Assembly (NCBI GenBank): GCA_951813565.1
Contig: OX638351.1
Span: forward strand, 1,152,001 to 1,216,000
DNA length: 64,000 nt
Reading direction: 5' to 3'
Source of the DNA: an uncultured Poribacteria bacterium
Lineage (GTDB): Bacteria; Poribacteria; WGA-4E; WGA-3G
Part shown: positions 46,128 through 63,856 of the stretch, one piece after another
Layout: each line of letters opens with the position of its first letter
How positions within the stretch are numbered: the first letter of the stretch is position 1
Translations under genes and position numbers: made by a program
The notes under the pieces: generated by a model
The model's database searches: none
The model's input: only the letters and a program-made list of their open reading frames with translations
Told to the model about the DNA's origin: nothing

Positions 46128-49100
46128 GTTTCTATTCCACATTGGTGCGATTAAAAGTGGTTCTCTGGCTTCAGCATGACAGACAGAACAAGCCGTTTCT
46201 ATTCCACATTGGTGCGATTAAAAGTTGTGGGTCGCCGTTGGCAATGCTATTGGTGTACCCGTGTTTCTATTCCACATTGGTGCGATTAAAAGGATTGGCC
46301 CCCTGTGACTTGTTCGGCGCCCCTGATCATGTTTCTATTCCACATTGGTGCGATTAAAAGTTTTCTGTTTTATCCCAAGGTGCTGCCAGTTGTTGATCTG
46401 TTTCTATTCCACATTGGTGCGATTAAAAGGCACGTGGGGTTGCTACACCAGAAATCAATTATGTCGTTTCTATTCCACATTGGTGCGATTAAAAGGTTGA
46501 AACTGCTGGCATAGTCAGATTACGTAACAAGAGTTTCTATTCCACATTGGTGCGATTAAAAGAATGCCAATTATGTCCAGTTCGGACTCTGGGTGGCAAT
46601 GTTTCTATTCCACATTGGTGCGATTAAAAGGAGTGCAAGAGGACTAACCAGACAGAACACATATTACTTGTTTCTATTCCACATTGGTGCGATTAAAAGA
46701 AGCCTCCACAGGTTCGGGGGTTATAGGGTTTTCAACGTTTCTATTCCACATTGGTGCGATTAAAAGAAGCCTCCACAGGTTCGGGGGTTATAGGGTTTTC
46801 AACGTTTCTATTCCACATTGGTGCGATTAAAAGTTTGCAGCAACAAGTACCTTATAAGAGTTGAAAGCGACGTTTCTATTCCACATTGGTGCGATTAAAA
46901 GATAAGTGGATGGTTGATCCTACATCTTCGGATCCCGTGTTTCTATTCCACATTGGTGCGATTAAAAGTAAGAAATTCTCCAAACCTACGAGTCAGGAAA
47001 CCCCGTTTCTATTCCACATTGGTGCGATTAAAAGGTTTCAGCACCACTCACATTAAAATAACCAGTAAGGGGTTTCTATTCCACATTGGTGCGATTAAAA
47101 GCGCGTTTGCACAAGAAAGAATTGTTCAGGATACATTAGAGAGTTTCTATTCCACATTGGTGCGATTAAAAGGTAATTAGAAAAACCCGAGCTGATTATT
47201 CCCCGAACAGTTTCTATTCCACATTGGTGCGATTAAAAGGTCTTGATATTGTCAAGCAAGTTGCAAGATATTCTCAGTTTCTATTCCACATTGGTGCGAT
47301 TAAAAGTTTAAAAAACCTGCCTATAGGGTATCGTGAAAATAGTTTCTATTCCACATTGGTGCGATTAAAAGTAGGTGTATTACACACTTTCTACGTTGCT
47401 TGGGGGTTTCTATTCCACATTGGTGCGATTAAAAGTATGTTTAGTTCTTGTTTATAATACTTTTATTTCACACGTTTCTATTCCACATTGGTGCGATTAA
47501 AAGTGGTGAAGATGTAATTATGCCTATCTATACAGATGATGTTTCTATTCCACATTGGTGCGATTAAAAGATTGAACAAGATTTTACAAGGTATACAAAA
47601 GTTGCCAGCGTTTCTATTCCACATTGGTGCGATTAAAAGAAAAAGCCGACAGTCTGTTAACCGTAAACTCAACAACCGTTTCTATTCCACATTGGTGCGA
47701 TTAAAAGTTGGTCTTTACAGGACATAGAAACTGTCTTTGAGTATGTTTCTATTCCACATTGGTGCGATTAAAAGGTTTATGAGAGGGGGAACATGTCCCC
47801 TTCAGACGCAGTTTCTATTCCACATTGGTGCGATTAAAAGAATATGACCCCGAAAAATTCACTTATATTGTTAGTAGTTTCTATTCCACATTGGTGCGAT
47901 TAAAAGGAGTTCCATTCTGGTGCATCACTCCGAATGAATTATAGTTTCTATTCCACATTGGTGCGATTAAAAGACAAACCTCTGCCCTAACATCCTTATA
48001 CGAGATCATCTCGTTTCTATTCCACATTGGTGCGATTAAAAGTCTACGTCTTATCTTGAACAAGTTATCCGTGCTAACTATGTTTCTATTCCACATTGGT
48101 GCGATTAAAAGAACCGATTGTAATTCCGATAGCACATTGTCCAAGCGGTTTCTATTCCACATTGGTGCGATTAAAAGTTATCGCGGCTCTCCCAGTCCGT
48201 ATTGGAGAGACTCTGGCGTTTCTATTCCACATTGGTGCGATTAAAAGTTTAGGCTTGAAAATCCGTGAGCGTGTTTGTAAGAGAGTTTCTATTCCACATT
48301 GGTGCGATTAAAAGGATCGTCTGTGATCCTTGTAGTCAACCTGATATTTGTTTCTATTCCACATTGGTGCGATTAAAAGGTCCAGTTCGGACTCTGGGTG
48401 GCGGTTGGAAATGCCATGTTTCTATTCCACATTGGTGCGATTAAAAGCCGAAAAGGATGACTTTGAATTTGCTAATCAACGAAGAGTTTCTATTCCACAT
48501 TGGTGCGATTAAAAGTTACTAAAGCAAAACTTAGAGTTTATATCTCCCAAGTTTCTATTCCACATTGGTGCGATTAAAAGTATATTCGCATCACAAAAGC
48601 AAAATGGAGCGTTAAGTTTCTATTCCACATTGGTGCGATTAAAAGTGCGGAGGGCCTCAAACTTTTATTTTTGGGTGAATGCTGTTTCTATTCCACATTG
48701 GTGCGATTAAAAGTGAGCGTCCCTGGATTCAACAACAAGGAGATATAAAAAGTTTCTATTCCACATTGGTGCGATTAAAAGGAAAAGTACATGAAGGAGG
48801 TGAAGAGGAAATGGCTGTTTCTATTCCACATTGGTGCGATTAAAAGGTGATGATCTTCGTCGTCATCAGGTAGGGCATGTTGCGTTTCTATTCCACATTG
48901 GTGCGATTAAAAGTGAAAAGAAAGTCCTCGCTGGTGGTTATGACTATACGTTTCTATTCCACATTGGTGCGATTAAAAGTGTTTAATCTTCATTACTCCA
49001 ATGAAGACTATTATATGTTTCTATTCCACATTGGTGCGATTAAAAGTCTGGCCGCTCAGGGCGCTGTTCTGATGCATGTGATGTTTCTATTCCACATTGG

Positions 49101-49310
49101 TGCGATTAAAAGACCAAACATCAACTATGTCCGCTTCGGCTTGTATGGTTTCTATTCCACATTGGTGCGATTAAAAGTGTTTAATCTTCATTACTCCAAT
49201 GAAGACTATTATATGTTTCTATTCCACATTGGTGCGATTAAAAGGGCTTTCCCGGACAGACAGCCAATCGGTCGCCATCAGTTTCTATTCCACATTGGTG
49301 CGATTAAAAG
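46128..49310 (-). CRISPR. CRISPR array, 48 repeats / 47 spacers (34-41 nt)
   Basis: Invariant 30-bp repeat GTTTCTATTCCACATTGGTGCGATTAAAAG on +. The transcribed strand is CTTTTAATCGCACCAATGTGGAATAGAAAC (3' GAAAC), with the leader on the cas2 side. Confidence 0.98.
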
Positions 49311-49566
49311 GCTATCCAAAAACTACATAAACATTATAATAAACCCTTACAGTTCCTGTCAAGTTAAAATTTATTTTTGTCAGATTTATGGGTGGTTGCC
49401 GTCAACCTCTAATCGTGCAAATTCTCTGGGAGGTTGACGGCAGTAGACGCATCAAGGGTTTGTCGGGGATTTTGCACGATTTTCGGTGCAGTATTGAGCC
49501 GCAAAATGAGAAAGATTTCGGAGGTCGACAGCAGAACATCAACACAGATTTACCGATGACGCCTTA
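49311..49566 (-). promoter_or_regulatory. CRISPR leader with sigma70 promoter
   Basis: Minus strand TTGACA (49362-49357)-N18-TATAAT (49338-49333); gtcaacctc/gaggttgac inverted motif. Confidence 0.75.
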
Positions 49567-49830
49567 CTACAGCAGGTTTGTCGCAGGATTCTTGTCAACA
49601 CCCATCACCTCTTTGGTCATCCATTTCGCATCGCGCAGTTGATAGATAATAACTGAGTCTTTTTCAGGATCGGTGATTTCTGCTAAACCCGATTTGACAC
49701 GAGCGAACTGTGCTTTGGTCAATTGTCCTTCAAATACAGAGTTTTGAATCCAATTGAGATGTTGACGCAGATATTTACATACCTTTGCCACCCGTTTCAC
49801 TTCTATGTCGTAAACGAGGATGATATACAT
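49567..49830 (-). CDS. cas2: Cas2
   Basis: MYIILVYDI, WIQNSVFEG and DSVIIY. Confidence 0.95.
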   Translation of the reverse strand: MYIILVYDIEVKRVAKVCKYLRQHLNWIQNSVFEGQLTKAQFARVKSGLAEITDPEKDSVIIYQLRDAKWMTKEVMGVDKNPATNLL

Positions 49831-49957
49831 TGTGATTGCCTCCGTTATATAAGATTGTCACGATTCCAAATCAACGGTATGAATGCCATTAAGGCATTCC
49901 CTGGAGATCGCTCCTACAGCGGTAAATCTGCTTTTTTCGGACGAGGAGACCTTGCCC

Positions 49958-50187
49958 CTACGATTTAGTGTGCTTCTACCACCACTGTCGCGAGCTGGAC
50001 AAGAAAATCGGGCTTAGAAAGCCCTCCCACAAGACAAAGTGCTTCTACCACCACTGTCGCGAGCTGGACAAGAAAATCGGGCTTAGAAAGCCCTCCCACA
50101 AGACAAAGTGCTTCTACCACCACTGTCGCGAGCTGGAGCTCGCTCCTACAAGAAGAGAATCTACGATTTAGTGTGTTTCTACCACCA
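49958..50187. repeat. 69-bp tandem repeats built from the cas1 3' end and REP fragments
   Basis: Units start at 49970, 50039 and 50108 (partial); each begins gtgcttctaccacca (cas1 TGGTGGTAG reversed). Confidence 0.85.
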
Positions 50188-51174
50188 TGGGCGGAGTGCT
50201 TGATACGTCTCCATCCCAACAAGATGTTTGATAAGTTTGTAACACTCTAATCTGATAAGTCGCTGATAGGAAACATGTCGATTCAGTTTACGATGCGAAA
50301 CCGTCTGCTTGAGTTGTTCGTCAAAAGCAGCAATAAAGGTTTTGCGTCCGTGTTCGTTCAGATAACACTCACCGACCTTTGTTTCAAAATGTTTTGATTC
50401 GTTGAGTTGCCCACGGTTAAACAATCGGAAGATAATCCTGTCAATGATCAGCGGTTTGAAGATTTCTGCGAGGTCAAGACTCAGTGAAAAACGACGCTCT
50501 CCCGGTTCATGCAGGAAACTGATTGTCGGGTTGAGCTGTGTGCGATAGATTTCTGTGAGACACGCTGGATACATCAATGAGTTGCCGAATGAGATAGCGG
50601 CATTAATTGGATTGTCAGGAGGACGCCGAACTCGACGTTCAAAAGGGGTTTCCAACTCCAGTATTGTGTTGAAAGCGGAGTAATAGGTGTCTCGGATTGT
50701 CCCTTCGTATCCCATCAACTCATTTGTATTTTTTGCGGATTGGCTTTCGTCAAGTAGCGTTTCTATTGTTTGAATTTGTGTGCTGCAATCTTTGCCACGA
50801 TTGGTATGATACCGCAATATTCGGAGCATATTGAATCCTGCGGATGCGACAAATTCGTGGGCAATCACCATGCGTTTGGCAGGTTTTTCGTAGTGCTGCA
50901 CCTGTTTAACGAGCAGTGAACCGGAGTTGAGATATTCTCTCGGATAATAACTTCCAGAATAGTATCCGTAATAGTTGAATACGTGGAAAGCGATTTTCTT
51001 TTGCGCGAGGAAGTTAAGCAGTTTAGTGTTGAGGTCAATTTCTCCGTAGAAGTAGAGTGCGTCGATGTCTTCTACGGGGATAGGGATACGTTTTGCGTCT
51101 TCCGGTTCAAGGTAGATTGTGTTGTCTTTTCGACGAATTCTACCGGGTTGTGTGATGTAGTAGTTGCGTGACAT
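50179..51174 (-). CDS. cas1: Cas1 (type I-B, no RT fusion)
   Basis: RRKDNTI, FNYYGYYSGS, PPDNPINAAISFGNS and LSLDLAEIFKP; GAAGGAG SD before ATG at 51174. Confidence 0.96.
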   Translation of the reverse strand: MSRNYYITQPGRIRRKDNTIYLEPEDAKRIPIPVEDIDALYFYGEIDLNTKLLNFLAQKKIAFHVFNYYGYYSGSYYPREYLNSGSLLVKQVQHYEKPAKRMVIAHEFVASAGFNMLRILRYHTNRGKDCSTQIQTIETLLDESQSAKNTNELMGYEGTIRDTYYSAFNTILELETPFERRVRRPPDNPINAAISFGNSLMYPACLTEIYRTQLNPTISFLHEPGERRFSLSLDLAEIFKPLIIDRIIFRLFNRGQLNESKHFETKVGECYLNEHGRKTFIAAFDEQLKQTVSHRKLNRHVSYQRLIRLECYKLIKHLVGMETYQALRPWW

Positions 51175-51241
51175 TGTTGGTCTCCTTCGTCGGCTATCGG
51201 GGTTGAAAACCCCTCCCACAAGAGAGGTCATACTACAAGTT

Positions 51242-51751
51242 TTAGCTCCAGCAGAGTTCTTGGTAACTACAGGATTTACATATCTTCATGTAATCGGCGT
51301 GCGGTGGTGTTGGTAGTGCGGTGATTCCTTGGACTTTTGTGATGGCGTCTTCCACCTCTTTTTCTTTTTCGGGTGTGAGTTCAACTTCGGTTGTTTGCCG
51401 TTGGCGCGGGTAGTTGATAATGCCTTTCCTATTGGATACACCTTTCTGTTTGAGCAGATAGAGGTAATAGCATATCTGCATGATGTGCGCTGTTTCCATT
51501 GATGTGCCAAATTTGATGTCGTGGAGGATGCCTTGTTTGTCTACGAAGTCAATACGAATGAGGTTGTCGATGTCCCATTCTCTGCGTTTTTCGCGTGGAT
51601 AACTCTCATCGTGTAGGTGTTTGCCGAGGTCAACTTTATCGGAGGTATGCTCCATTTCGAGATGGTGTGTGTAAAACCAGAGTTTGCGTTGGCAGATGTA
51701 GAGGTAGTTGATGGCTGTGCCGGTGATGTTTGGGTGGTGTGGGTTTTGCAT
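51242..51751 (-). CDS. cas4: Cas4
   Basis: ICQRKLW, RIDF..., QICYY and CKSCSYQELC. Confidence 0.95.
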   Translation of the reverse strand: MQNPHHPNITGTAINYLYICQRKLWFYTHHLEMEHTSDKVDLGKHLHDESYPREKRREWDIDNLIRIDFVDKQGILHDIKFGTSMETAHIMQICYYLYLLKQKGVSNRKGIINYPRQRQTTEVELTPEKEKEVEDAITKVQGITALPTPPHADYMKICKSCSYQELCWS

Positions 51752-51980: not shown

Positions 51981-53117
51981 TTACGGATTTGCATTTACAT
52001 TGTTCCTGTGTCCATACCTACGAAGTATGAGCCTGCCGTTATCCGTTGAACAACTGACGCGGATTCCGCGGGCAACACGAAAAGTATAAACGTTAGCATG
52101 CCCTTGTAAAGCTTTAAATCGTAATCCTCCTCCTGTGAGTGCTGTTGTATCTCCGTTGTTAGCCTTAAGTTTATAGGCAACATGAGCTAATGTTTCCTGA
52201 AGTTTAATGCGTTCTTCAACATTGTTTTGATTGCTGAAGTCATCTTTGAAACTTGGCAAGTATTCCAATCGTGGGAATGGTAGAAGTTCTCCTGTCAAAA
52301 TATCTGCTTTTGTCCGATTCCAAATCAGGTTTCCCCACGCGGACAACCATGCAACAGTTTTTCCGTTATTTGCTAGAGATTCAAGCAGTGTTTCTGGAAT
52401 ACCTTCAAGTTCTTCAATAGGATAATCTGCGTCAGCCGCCATCATTGCAAATTTTGTCCGATGCTGTTGGATTACGGATGTATCAATCTTAATTGGGAGA
52501 CGTGGAATTCTAATCAGATCAGAAGATCGTTCAAAGATATATACAGTTTCATCGGCATAGAATGTGCCGAAAGTCTGCATGTAACCTTGCAGGCTTTTGA
52601 AGCCACCAACAAGATTAAATATGACACGATAACCCGCATCAGGCCGCCACGGGACGTTATCCTCCAACCACTTAATGAGCTCCTTTATACCATCGGTGAA
52701 AGAATCTGTATCTTTCGTCGATAAACCTTTAGGTGTTACAATAGATACGCTACACCCTTTATCTTGCAGAAACTCAGAAATCAGTTTACCTGTTGTTTCT
52801 CCTTGTGCGGTGTCGGTGCAGATAAGATAGTGTTGATCTTTACTGTTTTCAGGTAACCGACCTTCGTAGATACCATAAACACCATTTAATTCTGCACTTG
52901 CCATTCGGTTTGTATTTACATCATTTTCCTGGAGTTTTTTATGTGCGCGTTCAGCGAGTTTTGTAATAACATCTTGAGCCTTAGCTTCTAATTCATCATT
53001 TTTAAGATTTGCTGATTCCACAAGTATTTTTGCCCAATCTCTTGCTTCGTCCGGATCTTTTCTATTGATGGAATTTGTGAGGATACTTGTTCCAACGGTT
53101 GATACGATAAAACGCAT
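51981..53117 (-). CDS. cami1: CARF (APE2256-type)-wHTH-RelE effector, Cami1-like
   Basis: STVGTSIL, TDTxxG, NLVGGFKS and VYIFE CARF motifs; C-terminal RelE-like FKALQG..VYTFRVARGIRVS...LILRRYGH. Confidence 0.8.
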   Translation of the reverse strand: MRFIVSTVGTSILTNSINRKDPDEARDWAKILVESANLKNDELEAKAQDVITKLAERAHKKLQENDVNTNRMASAELNGVYGIYEGRLPENSKDQHYLICTDTAQGETTGKLISEFLQDKGCSVSIVTPKGLSTKDTDSFTDGIKELIKWLEDNVPWRPDAGYRVIFNLVGGFKSLQGYMQTFGTFYADETVYIFERSSDLIRIPRLPIKIDTSVIQQHRTKFAMMAADADYPIEELEGIPETLLESLANNGKTVAWLSAWGNLIWNRTKADILTGELLPFPRLEYLPSFKDDFSNQNNVEERIKLQETLAHVAYKLKANNGDTTALTGGGLRFKALQGHANVYTFRVARGIRVSCSTDNGRLILRRYGHRNNVNANP

Positions 53118-53144
53118 TCTTAGCCTCCTTTCATGCTAAAAGAA

Positions 53145-54317
53145 TCAAGAGGCGTCAATTGGTGATATTTTGACCCAACCGAGTGGTGTGACAGGGTTAT
53201 CTCTACGGTATAAAATGCGGCGGGTTTTTGGGAATTCACGAGTATCATAGGGTTGTCGTTGATTAGAACGACTCCTACCTAACCGATACCGTTCTCGTAA
53301 CTCCATCACGTCTATAGGTGCATCTTCTCCTTGCGTAAACGATGCGGTAACAGTGTTAGAAAGGTATCCTGCGCCCCACCCGATTTGCAGCATAAACGCA
53401 TCGTCAGCCAGTCTATTGTTTAAACCCATCAGTTGTTCATATAGGTTAGCGATTTCTGGATTATTGTAGTCATCATAGAACTTTCGTTCCACTTCCATAA
53501 GTATTTGCGTCTCCTCGTTACAAACTTCAGCAATTTCTTGGAGTATATTTTTTTGTGTCTTATCAAAATTGAGTTGTTTTTTCTCCCTTTCTCTAAAAAG
53601 CAGGTCATCAATCTTGATGGAAAAACTCAAAGACTTCACACCCTGAATTACCTCTACAAAGTTTTTATATTCTGTGTTGTCCTCAACCTTCTGTTCAAGT
53701 TGATTGTTTTGATTGAGTGTAACCGTCCATGCAGTCTCGATTGCAAGTGCGTCCCACTCAAGCGGTTCAGTATCGCTTACTTGTAATGCGCGAAGCAGAT
53801 CATGGGTAGGGTCTTTCCCAAACGCCAGTTTTTCTATCTGTTGGGCAGGATTTTCTTGTCTACGTCTCGGTGGCGTGCCTTTTTCAATTTCTCTGTTCAG
53901 ATGTTCCGAACTGTCGTTATAGAGTTTTTCATTTTCAGCATTGTTTATTAGATCCGATAACAACGCAGTGCGGAGTGCACCTTTGATACTGCTACCGGGA
54001 ATATAGGGACGGTTGCCTACGGATTTGATAGCTTCTCGTATGTCAGTTGTTTCTGGGCTTTGGGCGCAAAGGATATTATAAGTGGAAAGGTCCGCTGCAT
54101 CCATGTTGTGCCGTGAGAAGTAATCGCTCCAACGGAAATCGCGCTGCGACATTTCGGAGGTCAATGCGTTTATATCAGTGCTTGGATGCGCTAATACTTT
54201 GTCCAGGTCAATATGATACCACCTGCTGTTAGCATAATAGCCATCAATATGATTCAACGTTTCGCCTGTGCCGATGTGGACTGGGGTGAGTGTTTCAAGT
54301 TTGTATTTTTGTTTCAT
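53145..54317 (-). CDS. csm5: Csm5 RAMP
   Basis: TLTPVHIGTG, PYIPGSSIKGALRTA, QIGWGAG and PLGWV. Confidence 0.92.
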   Translation of the reverse strand: MKQKYKLETLTPVHIGTGETLNHIDGYYANSRWYHIDLDKVLAHPSTDINALTSEMSQRDFRWSDYFSRHNMDAADLSTYNILCAQSPETTDIREAIKSVGNRPYIPGSSIKGALRTALLSDLINNAENEKLYNDSSEHLNREIEKGTPPRRRQENPAQQIEKLAFGKDPTHDLLRALQVSDTEPLEWDALAIETAWTVTLNQNNQLEQKVEDNTEYKNFVEVIQGVKSLSFSIKIDDLLFREREKKQLNFDKTQKNILQEIAEVCNEETQILMEVERKFYDDYNNPEIANLYEQLMGLNNRLADDAFMLQIGWGAGYLSNTVTASFTQGEDAPIDVMELRERYRLGRSRSNQRQPYDTREFPKTRRILYRRDNPVTPLGWVKISPIDAS

Positions 54318-54337
54318 TATTGAGGTTTTCTCCTACA

Positions 54338-55393
54338 TTATCGGGAATCGGAGTTCCCTCCTACTTTGATGCCGACCTGCCACGCGTAGCCATAGCGATA
54401 GACGTGATGCGGGTATTCCTTCGGTGTTAAATCTACCAACCTGCCAACGAGTTTGTCAGATGAATTTAAAACTGAACCTTCTGCGAACATATTGACCTTT
54501 TTCCTCTTTTTGTGTGTGCCAGTTGCCCCCACCCATCCTGTTAATGGGTTTAGGTTGTAGGCGATATCACCTTTGAGGAGATGCTCAAGTTGCTCCGATG
54601 ATTTGGGGCATATCGGTGAAAGTGTGACAAATTGCGTGCTGTGTTCCGCTGTCGATATTTCAAGATCATGCGCTGGGCAAAACTCAAACTGCCCGTAACC
54701 TGCGTTGCGTTCACCACCGATTCCGTTGTCGCCAAGCACTCGGAGTAGCGTTTCTACTTTCTGTTTTGTTGCATCAGAGTCAAATTTCGCTGCGAACCAG
54801 AGTCCGCAGTTTGTATTGAATTGGACGGTTTGGACGTGCCATATTTCGGAGCCTGAATTTTGCGCACCGATGGTAACGCGCGGGCGTGTGGTAGTCTCCC
54901 AAATGATTGGCGTATTATCCATCACCTTATTTAGTTGATCTTTTTCATCAGCACTTATCCAAACATTTTCACCGTTGATCAGATTGTCTCTGTCAAAATC
55001 AGGCGATTGATCGGAGATAATGTTTTGAAAAATAGATTTGGAAATGAACCGGACCTTTTTGATTTTTTTCTTAGATTTGTCTGGGACATTTTCATTTCCA
55101 CGAAAAGTCAAAGGTTTCGGAAAGAGGTAGATGTTATCTGCATACGGAAACGCAGAGGTTAACATAAAAGGTAACGTCTCGCTATCTTCTTTGTATCGTT
55201 CAAGAGACTTTTTGAGACTGTCGGTGTCGTAAAAGGTTGACCACGTTTGGCAGATTGCAGAAAAGAGCGTATCTGCTGGGATGTAGGTCTCGGTTTTCTC
55301 TAAGCCGAGGCTGCCTGTTTGTGCTGCACCTGTGGCGCGCCCGAGGTGTAGTTGTGTTTTGAACCTTAAGCGATAGACGGTATAATCTTCCAT
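54338..55393 (-). CDS. csm4: Csm4 RAMP
   Basis: LHLG, ADTLFSA, GIGGERNAGYG and HHVYRYG. Confidence 0.92.
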   Translation of the reverse strand: MEDYTVYRLRFKTQLHLGRATGAAQTGSLGLEKTETYIPADTLFSAICQTWSTFYDTDSLKKSLERYKEDSETLPFMLTSAFPYADNIYLFPKPLTFRGNENVPDKSKKKIKKVRFISKSIFQNIISDQSPDFDRDNLINGENVWISADEKDQLNKVMDNTPIIWETTTRPRVTIGAQNSGSEIWHVQTVQFNTNCGLWFAAKFDSDATKQKVETLLRVLGDNGIGGERNAGYGQFEFCPAHDLEISTAEHSTQFVTLSPICPKSSEQLEHLLKGDIAYNLNPLTGWVGATGTHKKRKKVNMFAEGSVLNSSDKLVGRLVDLTPKEYPHHVYRYGYAWQVGIKVGGNSDSR

Positions 55394-55401
55394 AATCGCA
55401 C

Positions 55402-56232
55402 CTATTTCCCGTTAATTGCTTTCAAAATTGTAGTTTTATAGTCCAATTTGCGTAGGGTTGCAATATCGGTGTTTTCATCTCCGATAGGGGTAAGGGTAAC
55501 GTTTGGGTCTTCATAACATTCACGCGATTTGAAGGTCATGGTTAGGTTCTCAAATGCTATTTGCCCAGAACCGCGGGAACCGGAGCCGCCGAGGTAGTCA
55601 TCTTGAAGCAGTTCCATACCTTTTAGGACGGTGTCGAAAAGTTTGAGTTCGTCTTGAAGTTGATTGTCATGATCGCTGCCGTGCAGTGTATAGAGACTGT
55701 GGGCTACTTGAAATGGTCCGAATATTGCGCCTGCAGGGACCCGTTCCTGTTGACGTGGTGTAGCGGCAGAGGTAATTCGGTCAATTGCTACTTCTGTCTT
55801 AATTTCGGTGAAGTCGGTATCGGTGTCGACTCTGTCCAGTACCGCCAGTGATTCGTCGGTTAAAAAGGTGTCTCGGACGATCACACGTGTCGGCATTGTT
55901 TTCCCTCTTAATTGTTGTATTGGTGCAACACCGAAAACTTGACAAACTGGGCATATATTATATTCTGCTGGTGTTTTGCACTCGTGAACTTGGACATCTC
56001 TACCGACAGACTTATTCAAATCCTTCTCGAAGTGCCGGTCAAGTAAACCTCGCATCTTTCCACGTAAGGACGAACCGGGGATGTAGGGTTGTCGGTTGAA
56101 GGCGTTTCGTATGATTGGATTATCAATACCACCGATGTCTAATTCACCTGTGTTGCCACCGATGTGTAATCCTGTTAAGGCGTTGATTGCACCTTTTAGA
56201 AAAATTTTTCCGTGTAGTTGAATGCTTGGCAT
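55402..56232 (-). CDS. csm3: Csm3 RAMP
   Basis: TGLHIGG...IGGIDNPIIR, PYIPGSSLRGKMR, EIKTEVAIDR and YLGGSGSRGSG; AAGGAGG SD before ATG at 56232. Confidence 0.95.
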   Translation of the reverse strand: MPSIQLHGKIFLKGAINALTGLHIGGNTGELDIGGIDNPIIRNAFNRQPYIPGSSLRGKMRGLLDRHFEKDLNKSVGRDVQVHECKTPAEYNICPVCQVFGVAPIQQLRGKTMPTRVIVRDTFLTDESLAVLDRVDTDTDFTEIKTEVAIDRITSAATPRQQERVPAGAIFGPFQVAHSLYTLHGSDHDNQLQDELKLFDTVLKGMELLQDDYLGGSGSRGSGQIAFENLTMTFKSRECYEDPNVTLTPIGDENTDIATLRKLDYKTTILKAINGK

Positions 56233-56242
56233 GTGTTCCTCC

Positions 56243-59132
<2,890 letters not shown>

Positions 59133-59200
59133 TGGGTGTTGTCCTTGTGGTATCAGGTGTTTTTCAATGGGTTATCTTATCATAACTTCAGTCAATATGA

Positions 59201-59301
59201 TGCTCTATTCCAAATTGGTTCGATTAAAAATGTACAAGAAATACAAGTTCCTTTAAGAGGAACAACAAAAGTTTTTATTCCAAATTGGTTCGATTATAAA
59301 G
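59201..59301 (-). CRISPR. Degenerate one-spacer mini-array (divergent repeats)
   Basis: tgctctattccaaattggttcgattaaaaa, a 40-nt spacer (59231-59270), then gtttttattccaaattggttcgattataaag. Both repeats share the same two substitutions versus the main repeat. Confidence 0.85.
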
Positions 59302-59855: not shown

Positions 59856-62189
59856 CTATAAAACGTTCGGATTATATTCGTCTAATATCAGACCAAGTGT
59901 ATTATCGTAGCGAACGTTGATGAAATACTGATTTATACGTTCATTTTCGTTGATTTGCCCATCCTTATATAGTTTTGCAAATTGGCTGTAACTAATTTGT
60001 GCGATGTATGCCCTCGCTTCATAATACTTGCGAGCATCTGTGTCGGATAAAAATTCTTGTTCGTAGCACGTTGGCACAACCTCAACGCTTTTAAAGAGTT
60101 CGTTAAACTCTTTACGTCCTTTAGCATCTTCAATGAACGGGACGATGTCTTGTAGGTGCCGTTCAAACAGTTGTTTTGCTCTATTAAACTTATCATTTTC
60201 TTTTTCATCATACCCTTCACAATAAACATTTTCTATAAGGACTTGGATTTTTGACTCCTTGAGTGTGTCATTAACTACAGATGCGAAAGCGTTTATAGTG
60301 CGTTCAACTTTCTCTGTGGAATAGATGTATTTATCGCTTTTCCCACCCTCTTTGCATATATGGACATCACAGATTCCTTTCTTGCCTTTTCTGTTGATAC
60401 GACCAAAACGTTGGATGAGTGCATCTATCGGTGCAGGTTCAGTAAAGAGACAATCAAAATCAATGTCAAGTGATACCTCAACGGCTTGTGTGCCGACAAG
60501 GAGATCGGCGTTTTCAAGTTCTCCTTCTATCCTTTCCCGATCTTTAAGGATAAATCGGCTGTGAAGGAGTTTGGCATTATCGGCTCCATGCTGCAATTCC
60601 TGAAACACATCTTGTGCCTGCTTGACAGTATTACAGACAACCATAACGCTATCTCCTTGGTTCAGTTTATCCTTTATTTTCGGAATAGCATCGGGGATAT
60701 TTCCATCAAGCAGCTTGACACGGTGCCGTGTGAATTTGTCCCTATCTTCTGGTGCCATGTCAACTGGTATGAATTCCCCGATTGCCTTGATAATCATATC
60801 TGTAAGAAACTGGGGCATTGTAGCAGTCATAATGCAGAACTTTGCATTGTAATCTTCACGGAGTTTCTTTATCATTGTCAAAATAAGCGCGGTTGTGTGC
60901 GGATCATAAGCATGGATTTCGTCAAAGATGAAAAGTCCATGAGACATCTCTGCCATCTGCATTTCAAAACCGCGTATACCGAAAAATGCTTTGAGGAGTT
61001 GAAAGGGCGTTAGCACCTTGTAAGGACGACAAATTTTTTTCGTTAGATCTCTTTCGTCTTGAGCACGTTTTTGCCTAACTAATTTTTCGGCAGATTCATG
61101 ATCACGCCCCTGATCAATGAAAGCTTGATATATGGCTTGATATTTGGCAGCATTTTGAGGTGTATAGTCTTTATCAACGAGTGCTTGATACATGAAGTAG
61201 GTAGCCTTTCCATGCAACACACCTATTTTTTCGTCTGATACGAGTTTTTTCAATCTCTTATACATTGCGTTGATGCTTGCAGTATAGGGTAACACATAAA
61301 AGACACGGTTACCTTTTGTTTTGCATTGGTTTTTGTCTGACCAAAGCAGCGCAGCTTCCGTTTTACCTGAACCTGTCGGTGCTGATAGCATGAGCTGACC
61401 GTCGGTTTTCCCAGCATCCTCTTGAAAGGACTCCCATCCGTGAAATTGTCGTCCTCTTTGCTCAATGCTTTGTACAAGGGACGCTTCAAGTTTATCAAGG
61501 GCGGTTTGGATTTCGTTTTTGGCATTGACATTAGAAGCAAGATGATCGCAGGCAATCATGCATCCGCGCATCAGCATGCCGTAGGTGCAGTGTAAGGAGT
61601 TTAATTCACCGTCTTCAAAGTCGTTCAAATATGGGGCAAGAAATTCTCGGTAACCACTAATGAGTAGATCGGTTGAGGTAACGGGTGTCCATAAGCACGT
61701 TGTTGTAGGAAACCAACTATGAAACCAATGAGGGATCTGCTCCTGTATTTCCATCAAAGCATCCCAATTCGGTTCCAGTTCTGCAACATGCTTTTGCCAC
61801 TCTTGATAACCTTCTTCGTTTTCTGGAATGCATGGATACTTTTCCCACAGCGTCTCACTATCCTTATGGTGTGTTAAAATGGCAAGTGCAATTGCCTGTT
61901 TTGCCTCATCTGATATTTGAAGTGTTACCACAAATCCAGTGGAAAGGATTTCATGACGATAGTTCCACCGATCATCTCTATCGGTAAGTTGCTTTTGGAA
62001 ACCGGTTGCTGCTTTGCCGAAATCGTGAAGTGCGACAGCGTAAAAAAGATGTTCAAAGAAATTAGGTTCTCCTGCAACATCAGCTAAAAAAGGCATCCGT
62101 TCTCGTAGACTATTGTATACTTCAAGACAATTCTGTGTATGATCATGAAGTGATTCTTGTGGATCGCTTTTTGCTAATAGTGTGGACAT
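59856..62189 (-). CDS. cas3: Cas3 HD nuclease-helicase
   Basis: LHDFGKA, RHE, APTGSGKTEA, FDEIHAY, TAT and QRFGRINR. Confidence 0.97.
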   Translation of the reverse strand: MSTLLAKSDPQESLHDHTQNCLEVYNSLRERMPFLADVAGEPNFFEHLFYAVALHDFGKAATGFQKQLTDRDDRWNYRHEILSTGFVVTLQISDEAKQAIALAILTHHKDSETLWEKYPCIPENEEGYQEWQKHVAELEPNWDALMEIQEQIPHWFHSWFPTTTCLWTPVTSTDLLISGYREFLAPYLNDFEDGELNSLHCTYGMLMRGCMIACDHLASNVNAKNEIQTALDKLEASLVQSIEQRGRQFHGWESFQEDAGKTDGQLMLSAPTGSGKTEAALLWSDKNQCKTKGNRVFYVLPYTASINAMYKRLKKLVSDEKIGVLHGKATYFMYQALVDKDYTPQNAAKYQAIYQAFIDQGRDHESAEKLVRQKRAQDERDLTKKICRPYKVLTPFQLLKAFFGIRGFEMQMAEMSHGLFIFDEIHAYDPHTTALILTMIKKLREDYNAKFCIMTATMPQFLTDMIIKAIGEFIPVDMAPEDRDKFTRHRVKLLDGNIPDAIPKIKDKLNQGDSVMVVCNTVKQAQDVFQELQHGADNAKLLHSRFILKDRERIEGELENADLLVGTQAVEVSLDIDFDCLFTEPAPIDALIQRFGRINRKGKKGICDVHICKEGGKSDKYIYSTEKVERTINAFASVVNDTLKESKIQVLIENVYCEGYDEKENDKFNRAKQLFERHLQDIVPFIEDAKGRKEFNELFKSVEVVPTCYEQEFLSDTDARKYYEARAYIAQISYSQFAKLYKDGQINENERINQYFINVRYDNTLGLILDEYNPNVL

Positions 62190-62192
62190 GTC

Positions 62193-62828
62193 TTATTCTC
62201 CATGAATGCGTTGGTGCAAATAGACACCCCATTCCTTATCGGTATCGTGTAATACATCACCCTCATATTTTATTTCCTCTGTGATAAGACAATATGCACG
62301 TGTACCACACTGCCGACGCGGAATATCTGCTGTGAAATGCGTTGGTAATGCCTGCACCTGTCCGTGAAGTTGTTGGTCAGGAAACGGGAGTATTGTATCG
62401 CAATAAGTCGTTTCCGTTTTACGTTCTAATTCAACTTCCTCTATAGATTTCACCGTTGCTAAATCTGAGGAACGCCCCAACAGCAAGGGGTAATGTGGTC
62501 GTTCTAATGCATCCTTTAACCACATATCCGGGGTATAAAGATAGAGTTCTGGTTGCACAAGGAATTCGCGTCTGTTGACGTTTGATTTTGCATCTAACTT
62601 GCCTCCAAATTCATAGACGGTTTCTAAATCAACTGCTCTGCCTTTACTCTTAAAAACAAACCCTATTGCTGCATCATGCGGTGTAACCCAGTCACCTTTT
62701 GCAGCAGTCAAAAGCCCATAAAGTGCCGAAAGTGGTGGTAAGGGTAGTGTCGGCTGGAATCCGCTAATAAATAACGGATTCCGAAATGATGAAACCCATC
62801 CCGTAATGTGAACGCGTAGAACCTTCAT
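62193..62828 (-). CDS. cas5: Cas5 (type I-B)
   Basis: SSFRNP...TLPLPPLSALYGLL, REFL and LLLGRSSDL. Confidence 0.92.
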   Translation of the reverse strand: MKVLRVHITGWVSSFRNPLFISGFQPTLPLPPLSALYGLLTAAKGDWVTPHDAAIGFVFKSKGRAVDLETVYEFGGKLDAKSNVNRREFLVQPELYLYTPDMWLKDALERPHYPLLLGRSSDLATVKSIEEVELERKTETTYCDTILPFPDQQLHGQVQALPTHFTADIPRRQCGTRAYCLITEEIKYEGDVLHDTDKEWGVYLHQRIHGE

Positions 62829-63856
62829 GGAATGTCTCCGATATGTGTTTCTAATTTTTGTGATAACATGGATATTACCTTATTTGGCGAATCGTAAACG
62901 ATTTCACATGGTAGGTTTGTGTTGTTTGCCAAACTCATTAGATCCTCATCTATTCCATCCATGAACCCGCTCCGTCTACCGATATAAATCGCATCACAAA
63001 ATCGGTCTGCGTAGTCGTCAATAACTTGGTTTAGTGCGTCTAAAGATAACTCTCCGACTTCATTTCGTTCTACCATTAAATTCATGAATGGGTGGTTTCC
63101 ACCGTCAAGGACTGTGAGAATAATCAGTTTAGGTGTAACATCGGTGAGGTGTGATGTCAATTTTGCCCCACCACTGAGTATAGGAAGTGCTTCAAGAGTT
63201 TGTTGACAACGTCTCACCCGAATCTCTTTTGGAAGCACCCACGGTGCCTTTTCGTCTTCCTGAGTGCCACCCGCATTTTGGATAGTCTCAACATAACTTG
63301 ATGAGATATTCTTATAGCCAGTCCTGTTAACATCAGAAAACGCACCCACTGCACTGAGATCTAATGAGAAAATACCTTGTAGGACACACGAATAAAATTG
63401 GTGTTCATACGGCACTGGATCACCTTCTTGCCGTGCCATCACACCGAAATCGTTTGTTGGAATTTGTGGTTCGATAGCAATAAGCGGTGAACACTTCAGT
63501 GGAGACAAGCGGGTTACCGTCAAGTTTACTCTTTTCTTACCTTGCATTTCGCTTTGAGCACGCATATAACCAAAGACATCGTCATCGTCATAAGTTACAG
63601 GGTCTGCAGCGGTAAATGCAATTTTTTTCTCTCTTTCTATAGGCGAATTTTTCCATTCATCAAATTCGTGTTTAAGGGTGGTGCGCCACCAGTTTCGCCA
63701 TGCTTGTCCGGAAACATAAGGATAGGTACTCCGTCCTTTTCTTAACGTTTTGACCTTTACTATGTTTTCTGTTCTTTCAGATGTGTCCTCACCTGCGTTG
63801 TTAAGTGCGGAATATGGTGCATCAATTAGGGTGAGTCCGATAAGGTGTTTAGACAT
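62825..63856 (-). CDS. cas7: Cas7 (Cst2/DevR, type I-B)
   Basis: SALNNAG, PYVSGQAWR, DDDVFGYMRA, RLSPL and TDVTPK. Confidence 0.93.
   Translation of the reverse strand: MSKHLIGLTLIDAPYSALNNAGEDTSERTENIVKVKTLRKGRSTYPYVSGQAWRNWWRTTLKHEFDEWKNSPIEREKKIAFTAADPVTYDDDDVFGYMRAQSEMQGKKRVNLTVTRLSPLKCSPLIAIEPQIPTNDFGVMARQEGDPVPYEHQFYSCVLQGIFSLDLSAVGAFSDVNRTGYKNISSSYVETIQNAGGTQEDEKAPWVLPKEIRVRRCQQTLEALPILSGGAKLTSHLTDVTPKLIILTVLDGGNHPFMNLMVERNEVGELSLDALNQVIDDYADRFCDAIYIGRRSGFMDGIDEDLMSLANNTNLPCEIVYDSPNKVISMLSQKLETHIGDIP

Follow-up and report, generated by a model that had tools for sequence, protein, structure and literature searches.

Five of the 45 distinct spacers in one CRISPR array of a sponge-symbiont Poribacteria bacterium (complete genome, 5.43 Mb) overlap without gaps into a stack of 83 nt, or 27 codons, and their overlaps hold several variants of one coding segment. 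The array lies in the window analysed here, a stretch of 64,000 nt (C1:1.15-1.22 Mb). We think it fairly probable that the target is a narrow, diverse family of DNA invaders, of which a PAM-rich conserved segment was sampled by type I-B adaptation, the guides being kept for the I-B and the type III-A effectors alike. The processes behind the stack are known ones, namely PAM-directed uptake, guide sharing between I-B and III systems, and silent variation in targeted genes. What is particular is the presence of five variants in one array, seven with those of sister strains, of a target that is absent from the collections searched.

The locus comprises one array, one I-B adaptation module and two effector modules (I-B and III-A). 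To the right of the array all genes are on the minus strand, in the order cas2, cas1, cas4, CARF-RelE effector, csm5 to csm2, cas10, cas3, cas5b, cas7, cas8b1 and cas6. The features are the following:

46128..49310, minus strand: CRISPR array of 47 spacers (34-41 nt, 45 of them distinct) between 48 identical 30-nt repeats, leader on the right
49311..49569, minus strand: leader region between array and cas2, placed by position, limits approximate
49570..51751, minus strand: adaptation module of cas2, cas1 (type I-B Cas1b) and cas4, without a reverse transcriptase
51981..59132, minus strand: type III-A module of CARF-RelE effector, csm5, csm4, csm3, csm2 and cas10 (HD and GGDD motifs)
59856..63856, minus strand: type I-B module of cas3, cas5b and cas7 (Cst2), with cas8b1 and cas6 next, past the end of the window

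The I-B gene set is complete (cas8b1, cas7 (Cst2/DevR), cas5b, cas3 and cas6, with cas4, cas1b and cas2), above the curated cut-offs where these are given, and the III-A set is present with cas10 (Csm1), csm2-5 and the CARF effector. The orientation of the array was deduced from the 3' end of the repeat on the minus strand, the position of cas2 and cas1, the PAM side, and the trailer spacers in common with the array of a sister strain, L069. The guides are reverse complements of the plus-strand spacers. Several minor features were observed in the same locus: a spacer duplicated as tandem copies (46700-46803), a small stack of 69-nt repeat units between cas2 and cas1 (49958-50187), a cold-shock domain ahead of the Csm2 domain in the csm2 frame (56243-56893), and two degenerate copies of the repeat, separated by one insert the size of a spacer, between cas10 of the III-A module and cas3 of the I-B module (59195-59300).

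A preliminary description of the array had proposed that five spacers tile synonymous variants of one 27-codon protein segment. All five were found where it had placed them, translate as it had read them, and join without a gap:

46225..46262, minus strand: stack spacer, the oldest of the five (rank 46 of 47 counted from the leader), with an identical copy in L069
46430..46465, minus strand: stack spacer at the left end of the stack, rank 43, NGG lacking from its PAM-side flank in all four other variants spanning it
46563..46600, minus strand: stack spacer, rank 41, PAM CCA from three overlapping variants
48380..48417, minus strand: stack spacer, rank 14, PAM CCA, site also taken by L069 and by the array behind the protein record P0003
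49113..49147, minus strand: stack spacer, rank 3, the variant that diverges most, present as well in the sister array behind P0004

In the frame first proposed, which is the mRNA sense, the pairwise codon differences among six variants (one of them from the sister strain) are 26 silent against 11 replacement, the pairs not being independent, and the other five frames give 2-8 silent against 28-35 replacement differences. Since silent differences dominate in this frame alone, the frame is coding. Third codon positions account for 10 of the 17 variable columns. Spacers 48380-48417 and 46225-46262 overlap by 26 nt with six differences, all of them silent, and the most distant pair, 49113-49147 and 46563-46600, differs at 11 of 31 nt. 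The LWVAVGNA overlap is fully silent as described, but to call the whole stack synonymous is too strong, since five positions in its left half change the residue (E/N, I/A, Q/R, W/Y, and V versus I or M at the end of 46563-46600). The evidence supports an origin of the spacers from more than one variant of a single gene, a long-lasting exposure to the target family (ranks 46, 43, 41, 14 and 3, from the oldest to the newest end), and a target protein that can be partly read from spacers alone. Mutation within the array was rejected as the source of the variants; the repeats and the shared spacers are unchanged and the changes are silent. The long arms race proposed in the preliminary description may lie behind the silent variation, but purifying selection would leave such variation in any diverse family.

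A metagenome scan with the repeat returned one contig, L069, which carries 66 repeats at the same locus and is 98% identical on the cas1 side. Its array has three spacers in common with ours unchanged, including the two oldest, and at 48380-48417 a spacer of its own, which begins and ends at the same positions and carries two silent third-position changes. These two changes, beside three spacers shared by descent without change, support what would be a separate uptake of this site by L069. Three further sister arrays were met in translated form in protein libraries, as peptides only. P0003 has the 48380-48417 site with two replacements and, to go by the reading frame, an additional base at the far end; P0004 has the 49113 spacer in common; and P0002 has, at the matching position, a variant of the spacer that is duplicated at 48980 and 49178 (48980-49214, the copies two spacers apart). 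L069 and P0003 thus bring the variants at the stack site to six and seven.

When the 107 distinct spacers of this array and L069 were pooled, 15 pairs overlapped with a score of at least 9, against a mean of 0.5 in eight shuffles. Thirteen of the pairs are same-strand and two opposite-strand, and together they form about seven clusters, the largest being the stack cluster with six spacers; about 85 of the 107 overlap nothing at the thresholds used. The other overlaps include the following spacers:

47307..47341, minus strand: overlaps an opposite-strand L069 spacer, both flanks CCN
47571..47609, minus strand: spacer of a second cluster, together with two L069 spacers, one of them on the opposite strand
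48178..48217, minus strand: 13-nt overlap with an L069 spacer, PAM CCA
49047..49082, minus strand: overlaps two L069 spacers, one at the DNA level and one mainly at the peptide level

One cluster other than the stack is also matched by a spacer of a related genome, G031, which indicates that at least part of the target family spans species. The stack itself had no match among 1807 spacers of relatives (arrays from part of the 30 repeat-bearing genomes). By eye, the spacer at 48782-48816 and spacer 24 of L069 both span a motif resembling a ribosome-binding site followed by ATG, as at the starts of target genes.

The PAM was read by two routes. In the first, the flank of one spacer was read where an overlapping neighbour extends past its end, so that every flank comes from another variant and not from the spacer's own protospacer. 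The flank on the 5' side of the guide is NGG on the plus strand (a 5'-CCN PAM) at 7 of 10 sites (p about 1e-7), against a background of 5.2% NGG among spacer triplets; the remaining three are not NGG, and three weaker pairs gave one yes and two no. A blind automatic tally found NGG at 5/6 on the PAM side and 0/6 at the distal end in this strain with L069, and at 10/24 and 2/28, respectively, in relatives. The PAM-side end alone is in common in 12 pairs and the distal end alone in none, and one opposite-strand pair carries CCN on both strands. The second route, which does without overlaps, compares the codon phase of spacer ends with simulated NGG-anchored or random ends. In relatives the phases (122/176/208 and 146/114/94) fit the NGG model (p 0.91 and 0.24) and reject the model without a PAM (p 3e-5 and 0.003); for this strain with L069 they are 15/8/16 (39 spacers), with p 0.04 against the NGG model and 0.21 against no PAM. 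As read from the spacers, the I-B PAM of this array is 5'-CCN, on both strands and in relatives too. The preliminary description had looked to database matches for a PAM, and the overlaps yielded one without them. CCN, CCA and CCT are among the I-B PAMs in Table 1 of PMC8482600, and Cas4 is described as setting PAM and orientation in P. furiosus (PMC7293040).

Because spacer ends are PAM-anchored and both strands were sampled, the source of the spacers is taken to be double-stranded DNA, acquired via Cas4-Cas1-Cas2. This speaks against the RNA-virus target that the preliminary description had left open, and against which the absence of a reverse transcriptase from the locus also counts. Matches to reverse transcriptase in the genome were found only at C1:3.99 Mb and C1:0.81 Mb, none at the cas1 of this array. 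An RNA phage or an abundant transcript could in principle have been copied by the reverse transcriptase of the genome's type III-D array, whose gene sits beside a second cas1 2.8 Mb away, and all five stack guides are antisense to the coding frame, as such an origin would have it. We regard this as very improbable: opposite-strand spacers carry the same PAM as the others, the DNA-level overlaps of the array linked to the reverse transcriptase have NGG in 0/3, and none of its spacers overlaps this array at a score of at least 11. An RNA origin of the stack spacers was therefore rejected on the PAM at their ends and the lack of an adjoining reverse transcriptase, and RT-linked spacers against RNA phages, as treated in 10.1101/2022.02.15.480533, are not the case here. 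The type III-D array, with its stand-alone reverse transcriptase next to cas1 (C1:3992477-3996456), has spacers whose overlaps cover a different peptide: one cluster of about six, another of two, and a similar pair. Its guides are antisense to the coding sequence in 37/53 and the NGG flank is absent in three overlaps, making it a candidate for RNA-derived spacers from one abundant transcript.

The strand bias of the present array extends beyond the stack. A codon model assigned guides antisense to the coding sequence to 33 of the 45 spacers (p 0.0025) and to 71 of the 107 pooled with L069; as a control, it called 241 of 300 pure-sense fragments, and spacers of relatives gave 43-59%. With a simpler amino-acid model the count was 29/45 (p 0.07). 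Selection by the III-A effector for guides that pair with mRNA would leave such a bias. A type III gene alone cannot explain its strength here, since cas10 is present in four of five relatives checked and the bias is weaker there. A bias toward guides antisense to mRNA is described for shared I-B/III arrays in PMC8482600, and the array studied here has both marks of that class, a type I PAM and a bias to mRNA-pairing guides. As in the arrays of Vink et al. 2021 (PMC8482600), one array stands beside I-B and III modules with I-B adaptation genes, and the PAM is of the CCN type; PAM and strand were obtained there from mapped targets, whereas here they come from the spacers themselves. Poribacteria are absent from the representative genera of Table 1 in that paper.

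From the density of overlaps the effective size of the target comes to 19 kb, or to 29 kb if the stack is left out; four relatives gave 59-1100 kb. These sizes are upper bounds, as diverged overlaps are missed. An effective 19-29 kb would suit small-genome elements, as supposed in the preliminary description, or the part that larger phages conserve. The chance that 5 of 45 spacers fall in one 83-nt window is 2.5e-4 for a 13 kb target and 3e-5 for 22 kb, and with a threefold PAM density it becomes 0.37 (5 kb), 0.015 (13 kb) and 0.002 (22 kb). PAM density alone is therefore insufficient to account for the stack unless the target is small. This leads to the alternative of a very small DNA genome of a few kb (a satellite, small plasmid or small virus) in which overlaps arise from near-random sampling of PAMs, with no hotspot mechanism. 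The value of 0.37 at 5 kb with local PAM density, the overlaps of pooled spacers 2-50 times denser than in the four relatives, and the strong one-strand bias speak for it. However, with about 85 of the 107 pooled spacers free of overlap, a 5-kb element would supply only part of the array, and no hallmark gene was recognised among the short pieces compared with PHROG and PDB. We consider it a rival of some standing, if an unlikely one.

The hotspot is real, and we read it best as a conserved PAM-rich segment in a narrow pool of targets, with priming possibly adding to it. In the right half of the stack NGG occurs seven times within 31 columns, and in two of the PAMs used the GG forms the first two letters of a glycine codon, so that they cannot be lost silently. 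The site taken by three lineages has such a glycine-codon PAM. The PAM of 49113-49147, which spans a codon boundary, is CCA in three variants and is removed by a silent change in a fourth. A genus-wide selection for glycine-coded PAMs was rejected, as no excess was seen. The geometry expected of priming, with later same-strand spacers on the PAM side of an older mismatched one, is borne out only partly: relative to the spacer at 46430-46465, the three later spacers lie on the PAM side, and relative to the oldest (46225-46262) all four later ones are PAM-distal. In P. furiosus, I-B priming concentrates new spacers around a mismatched target, and I-B and III effectors use common guides, as is proposed here (there also with I-A; PMC7293040). 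A more specific proposal, that of an undescribed small (below about 20 kb) and diverse family of Poribacteria DNA viruses or satellites together with a stack site offering no silent escape from its glycine-codon PAM, is put forward tentatively and with low confidence.

Under the preferred reading of a narrow invader family, Cas4-Cas1-Cas2 of the I-B system would cut pieces of 34-41 nt from invading double-stranded DNA beside a 5'-CCN PAM. The host lineage would have met, repeatedly, one narrow and internally diverse family of DNA elements, possibly viruses, whose conserved GG-rich coding segment offers several PAMs within about 50 nt. This strain and its sister strains would have sampled the segment independently and from different variants, and guides antisense to mRNA would have been retained preferentially because they serve both the I-B and the III-A effectors. 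Spacers from earlier encounters that match only in part may prime further uptake at this site.

The profile search of the consensus and the spacer searches that had been proposed at the outset found the target in none of the collections covered. With the stack and three other clusters, a viral contig collection gave no match, exact matches alone being registered, so that diverged targets are missed; metagenome contigs were scanned with one strict pattern and did not contain the target; and the sole match in a genome contig collection was the spacer in G031. By blastn against 50,697 phage records no target was found, the eleven short matches at E 1-5 being taken as chance. In 176 genomes of the phylum, profile searches (some models with only 11 positions) matched nothing outside arrays, and a one-mismatch pattern hit 12 places outside the host genome, none with a fitting context. 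Short pieces of the clusters had no match in PDB, nor did five short pieces in PHROGs, and among the best matches listed the host genome had no protospacer. One sequencing run contained the array (share 0.05), with no RNA run among those listed; its contigs covered two array spacers and lacked the target.

A HMMER search of 1.84 billion proteins returned 91 hits. Most were CRISPR arrays in translation, drawn in by a profile of which about 10 of 27 positions derive from the repeat, and when 92 proteins were re-scored with a clean profile, only three array ORFs exceeded 8.6 bits. The word search of 5.8 billion proteins gave 85 candidates of 71-2000 aa, with a single match outside arrays (P0001, E 8.5), and no candidate of up to 70 aa. 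In a simulation that ignores the word filter, its profile recovered 200, 187, 136 and 85 of 200 at 0, 10, 20 and 30% added change (E<=10). Had a near-identical protein of 71-2000 residues been present, the search would probably have shown it; a diverged one would have been missed. P0001, a repeat protein, matches the right half of the stack at seven residues of its repeats. The match is not significant, but it brings up the idea that the stack spacers are copies of an internal repeat in one long gene, such as a beta-propeller fibre protein, and that the variants are paralogous. Yet no match extends over a whole repeat of P0001: it is confined to 7-9 residues, with at most 8.5 bits per repeat and an hhalign probability of 11% over 9 columns. 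Several other clusters with unrelated peptides have the same silent variation with no need of repeats. We find the idea improbable, less so than an RNA origin.

Silent target variants (PMC2612747), spacer-tiled contigs (PMC6858448), shared I-B/III arrays (PMC8482600) and I-B priming (PMC7293040) are already known. Heidelberg et al. 2009 (PMC2612747) described CRISPR spacers from Synechococcus mats that target the lysozyme gene of a phage. There, too, the segment targeted is viral, coding and conserved, and its variants, some as low as about 70% in nucleotide identity, differ mostly by silent or conservative changes. They were virome reads compared with one spacer, whereas here five variants are overlapping spacers in one array. 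In the Sulfolobales CRISPRome (Medvedeva et al. 2019, PMC6858448), target sequence was also rebuilt from spacer overlaps, by community-wide deep sequencing; here one genome and one sister array served, for 27 codons only. No closer precedent was found in the sections of PMC6452263 and PMC5513706 consulted, nor anything on this array or a Poribacteria PAM in the literature listings searched, where coverage of subscription journals was thin.

This study provides 5'-CCN as the PAM of I-B systems in an uncultured genus of sponge symbionts for which any known target is lacking, and both routes to it (overlap flanks and codon phase) are reusable for orphan arrays. The clusters yield several short protein tags that might serve to fish the missing virus family of Poribacteria from sponge viromes, and the stack is a natural allele series for asking whether silent changes at a hotspot are escape or drift. 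Two further observations were made outside the window. In the array L035 of another genome, G009, four overlapping spacers (61, 70, 80 and 149) contain a variant of the CRISPR repeat, so that their target carries a repeat; this could be an invader-borne mini-array or a solitary repeat, and could act as an RNA anti-CRISPR. In the host genome itself, a 26-repeat array lies beside an IscB gene (C1:2830674-2832385).
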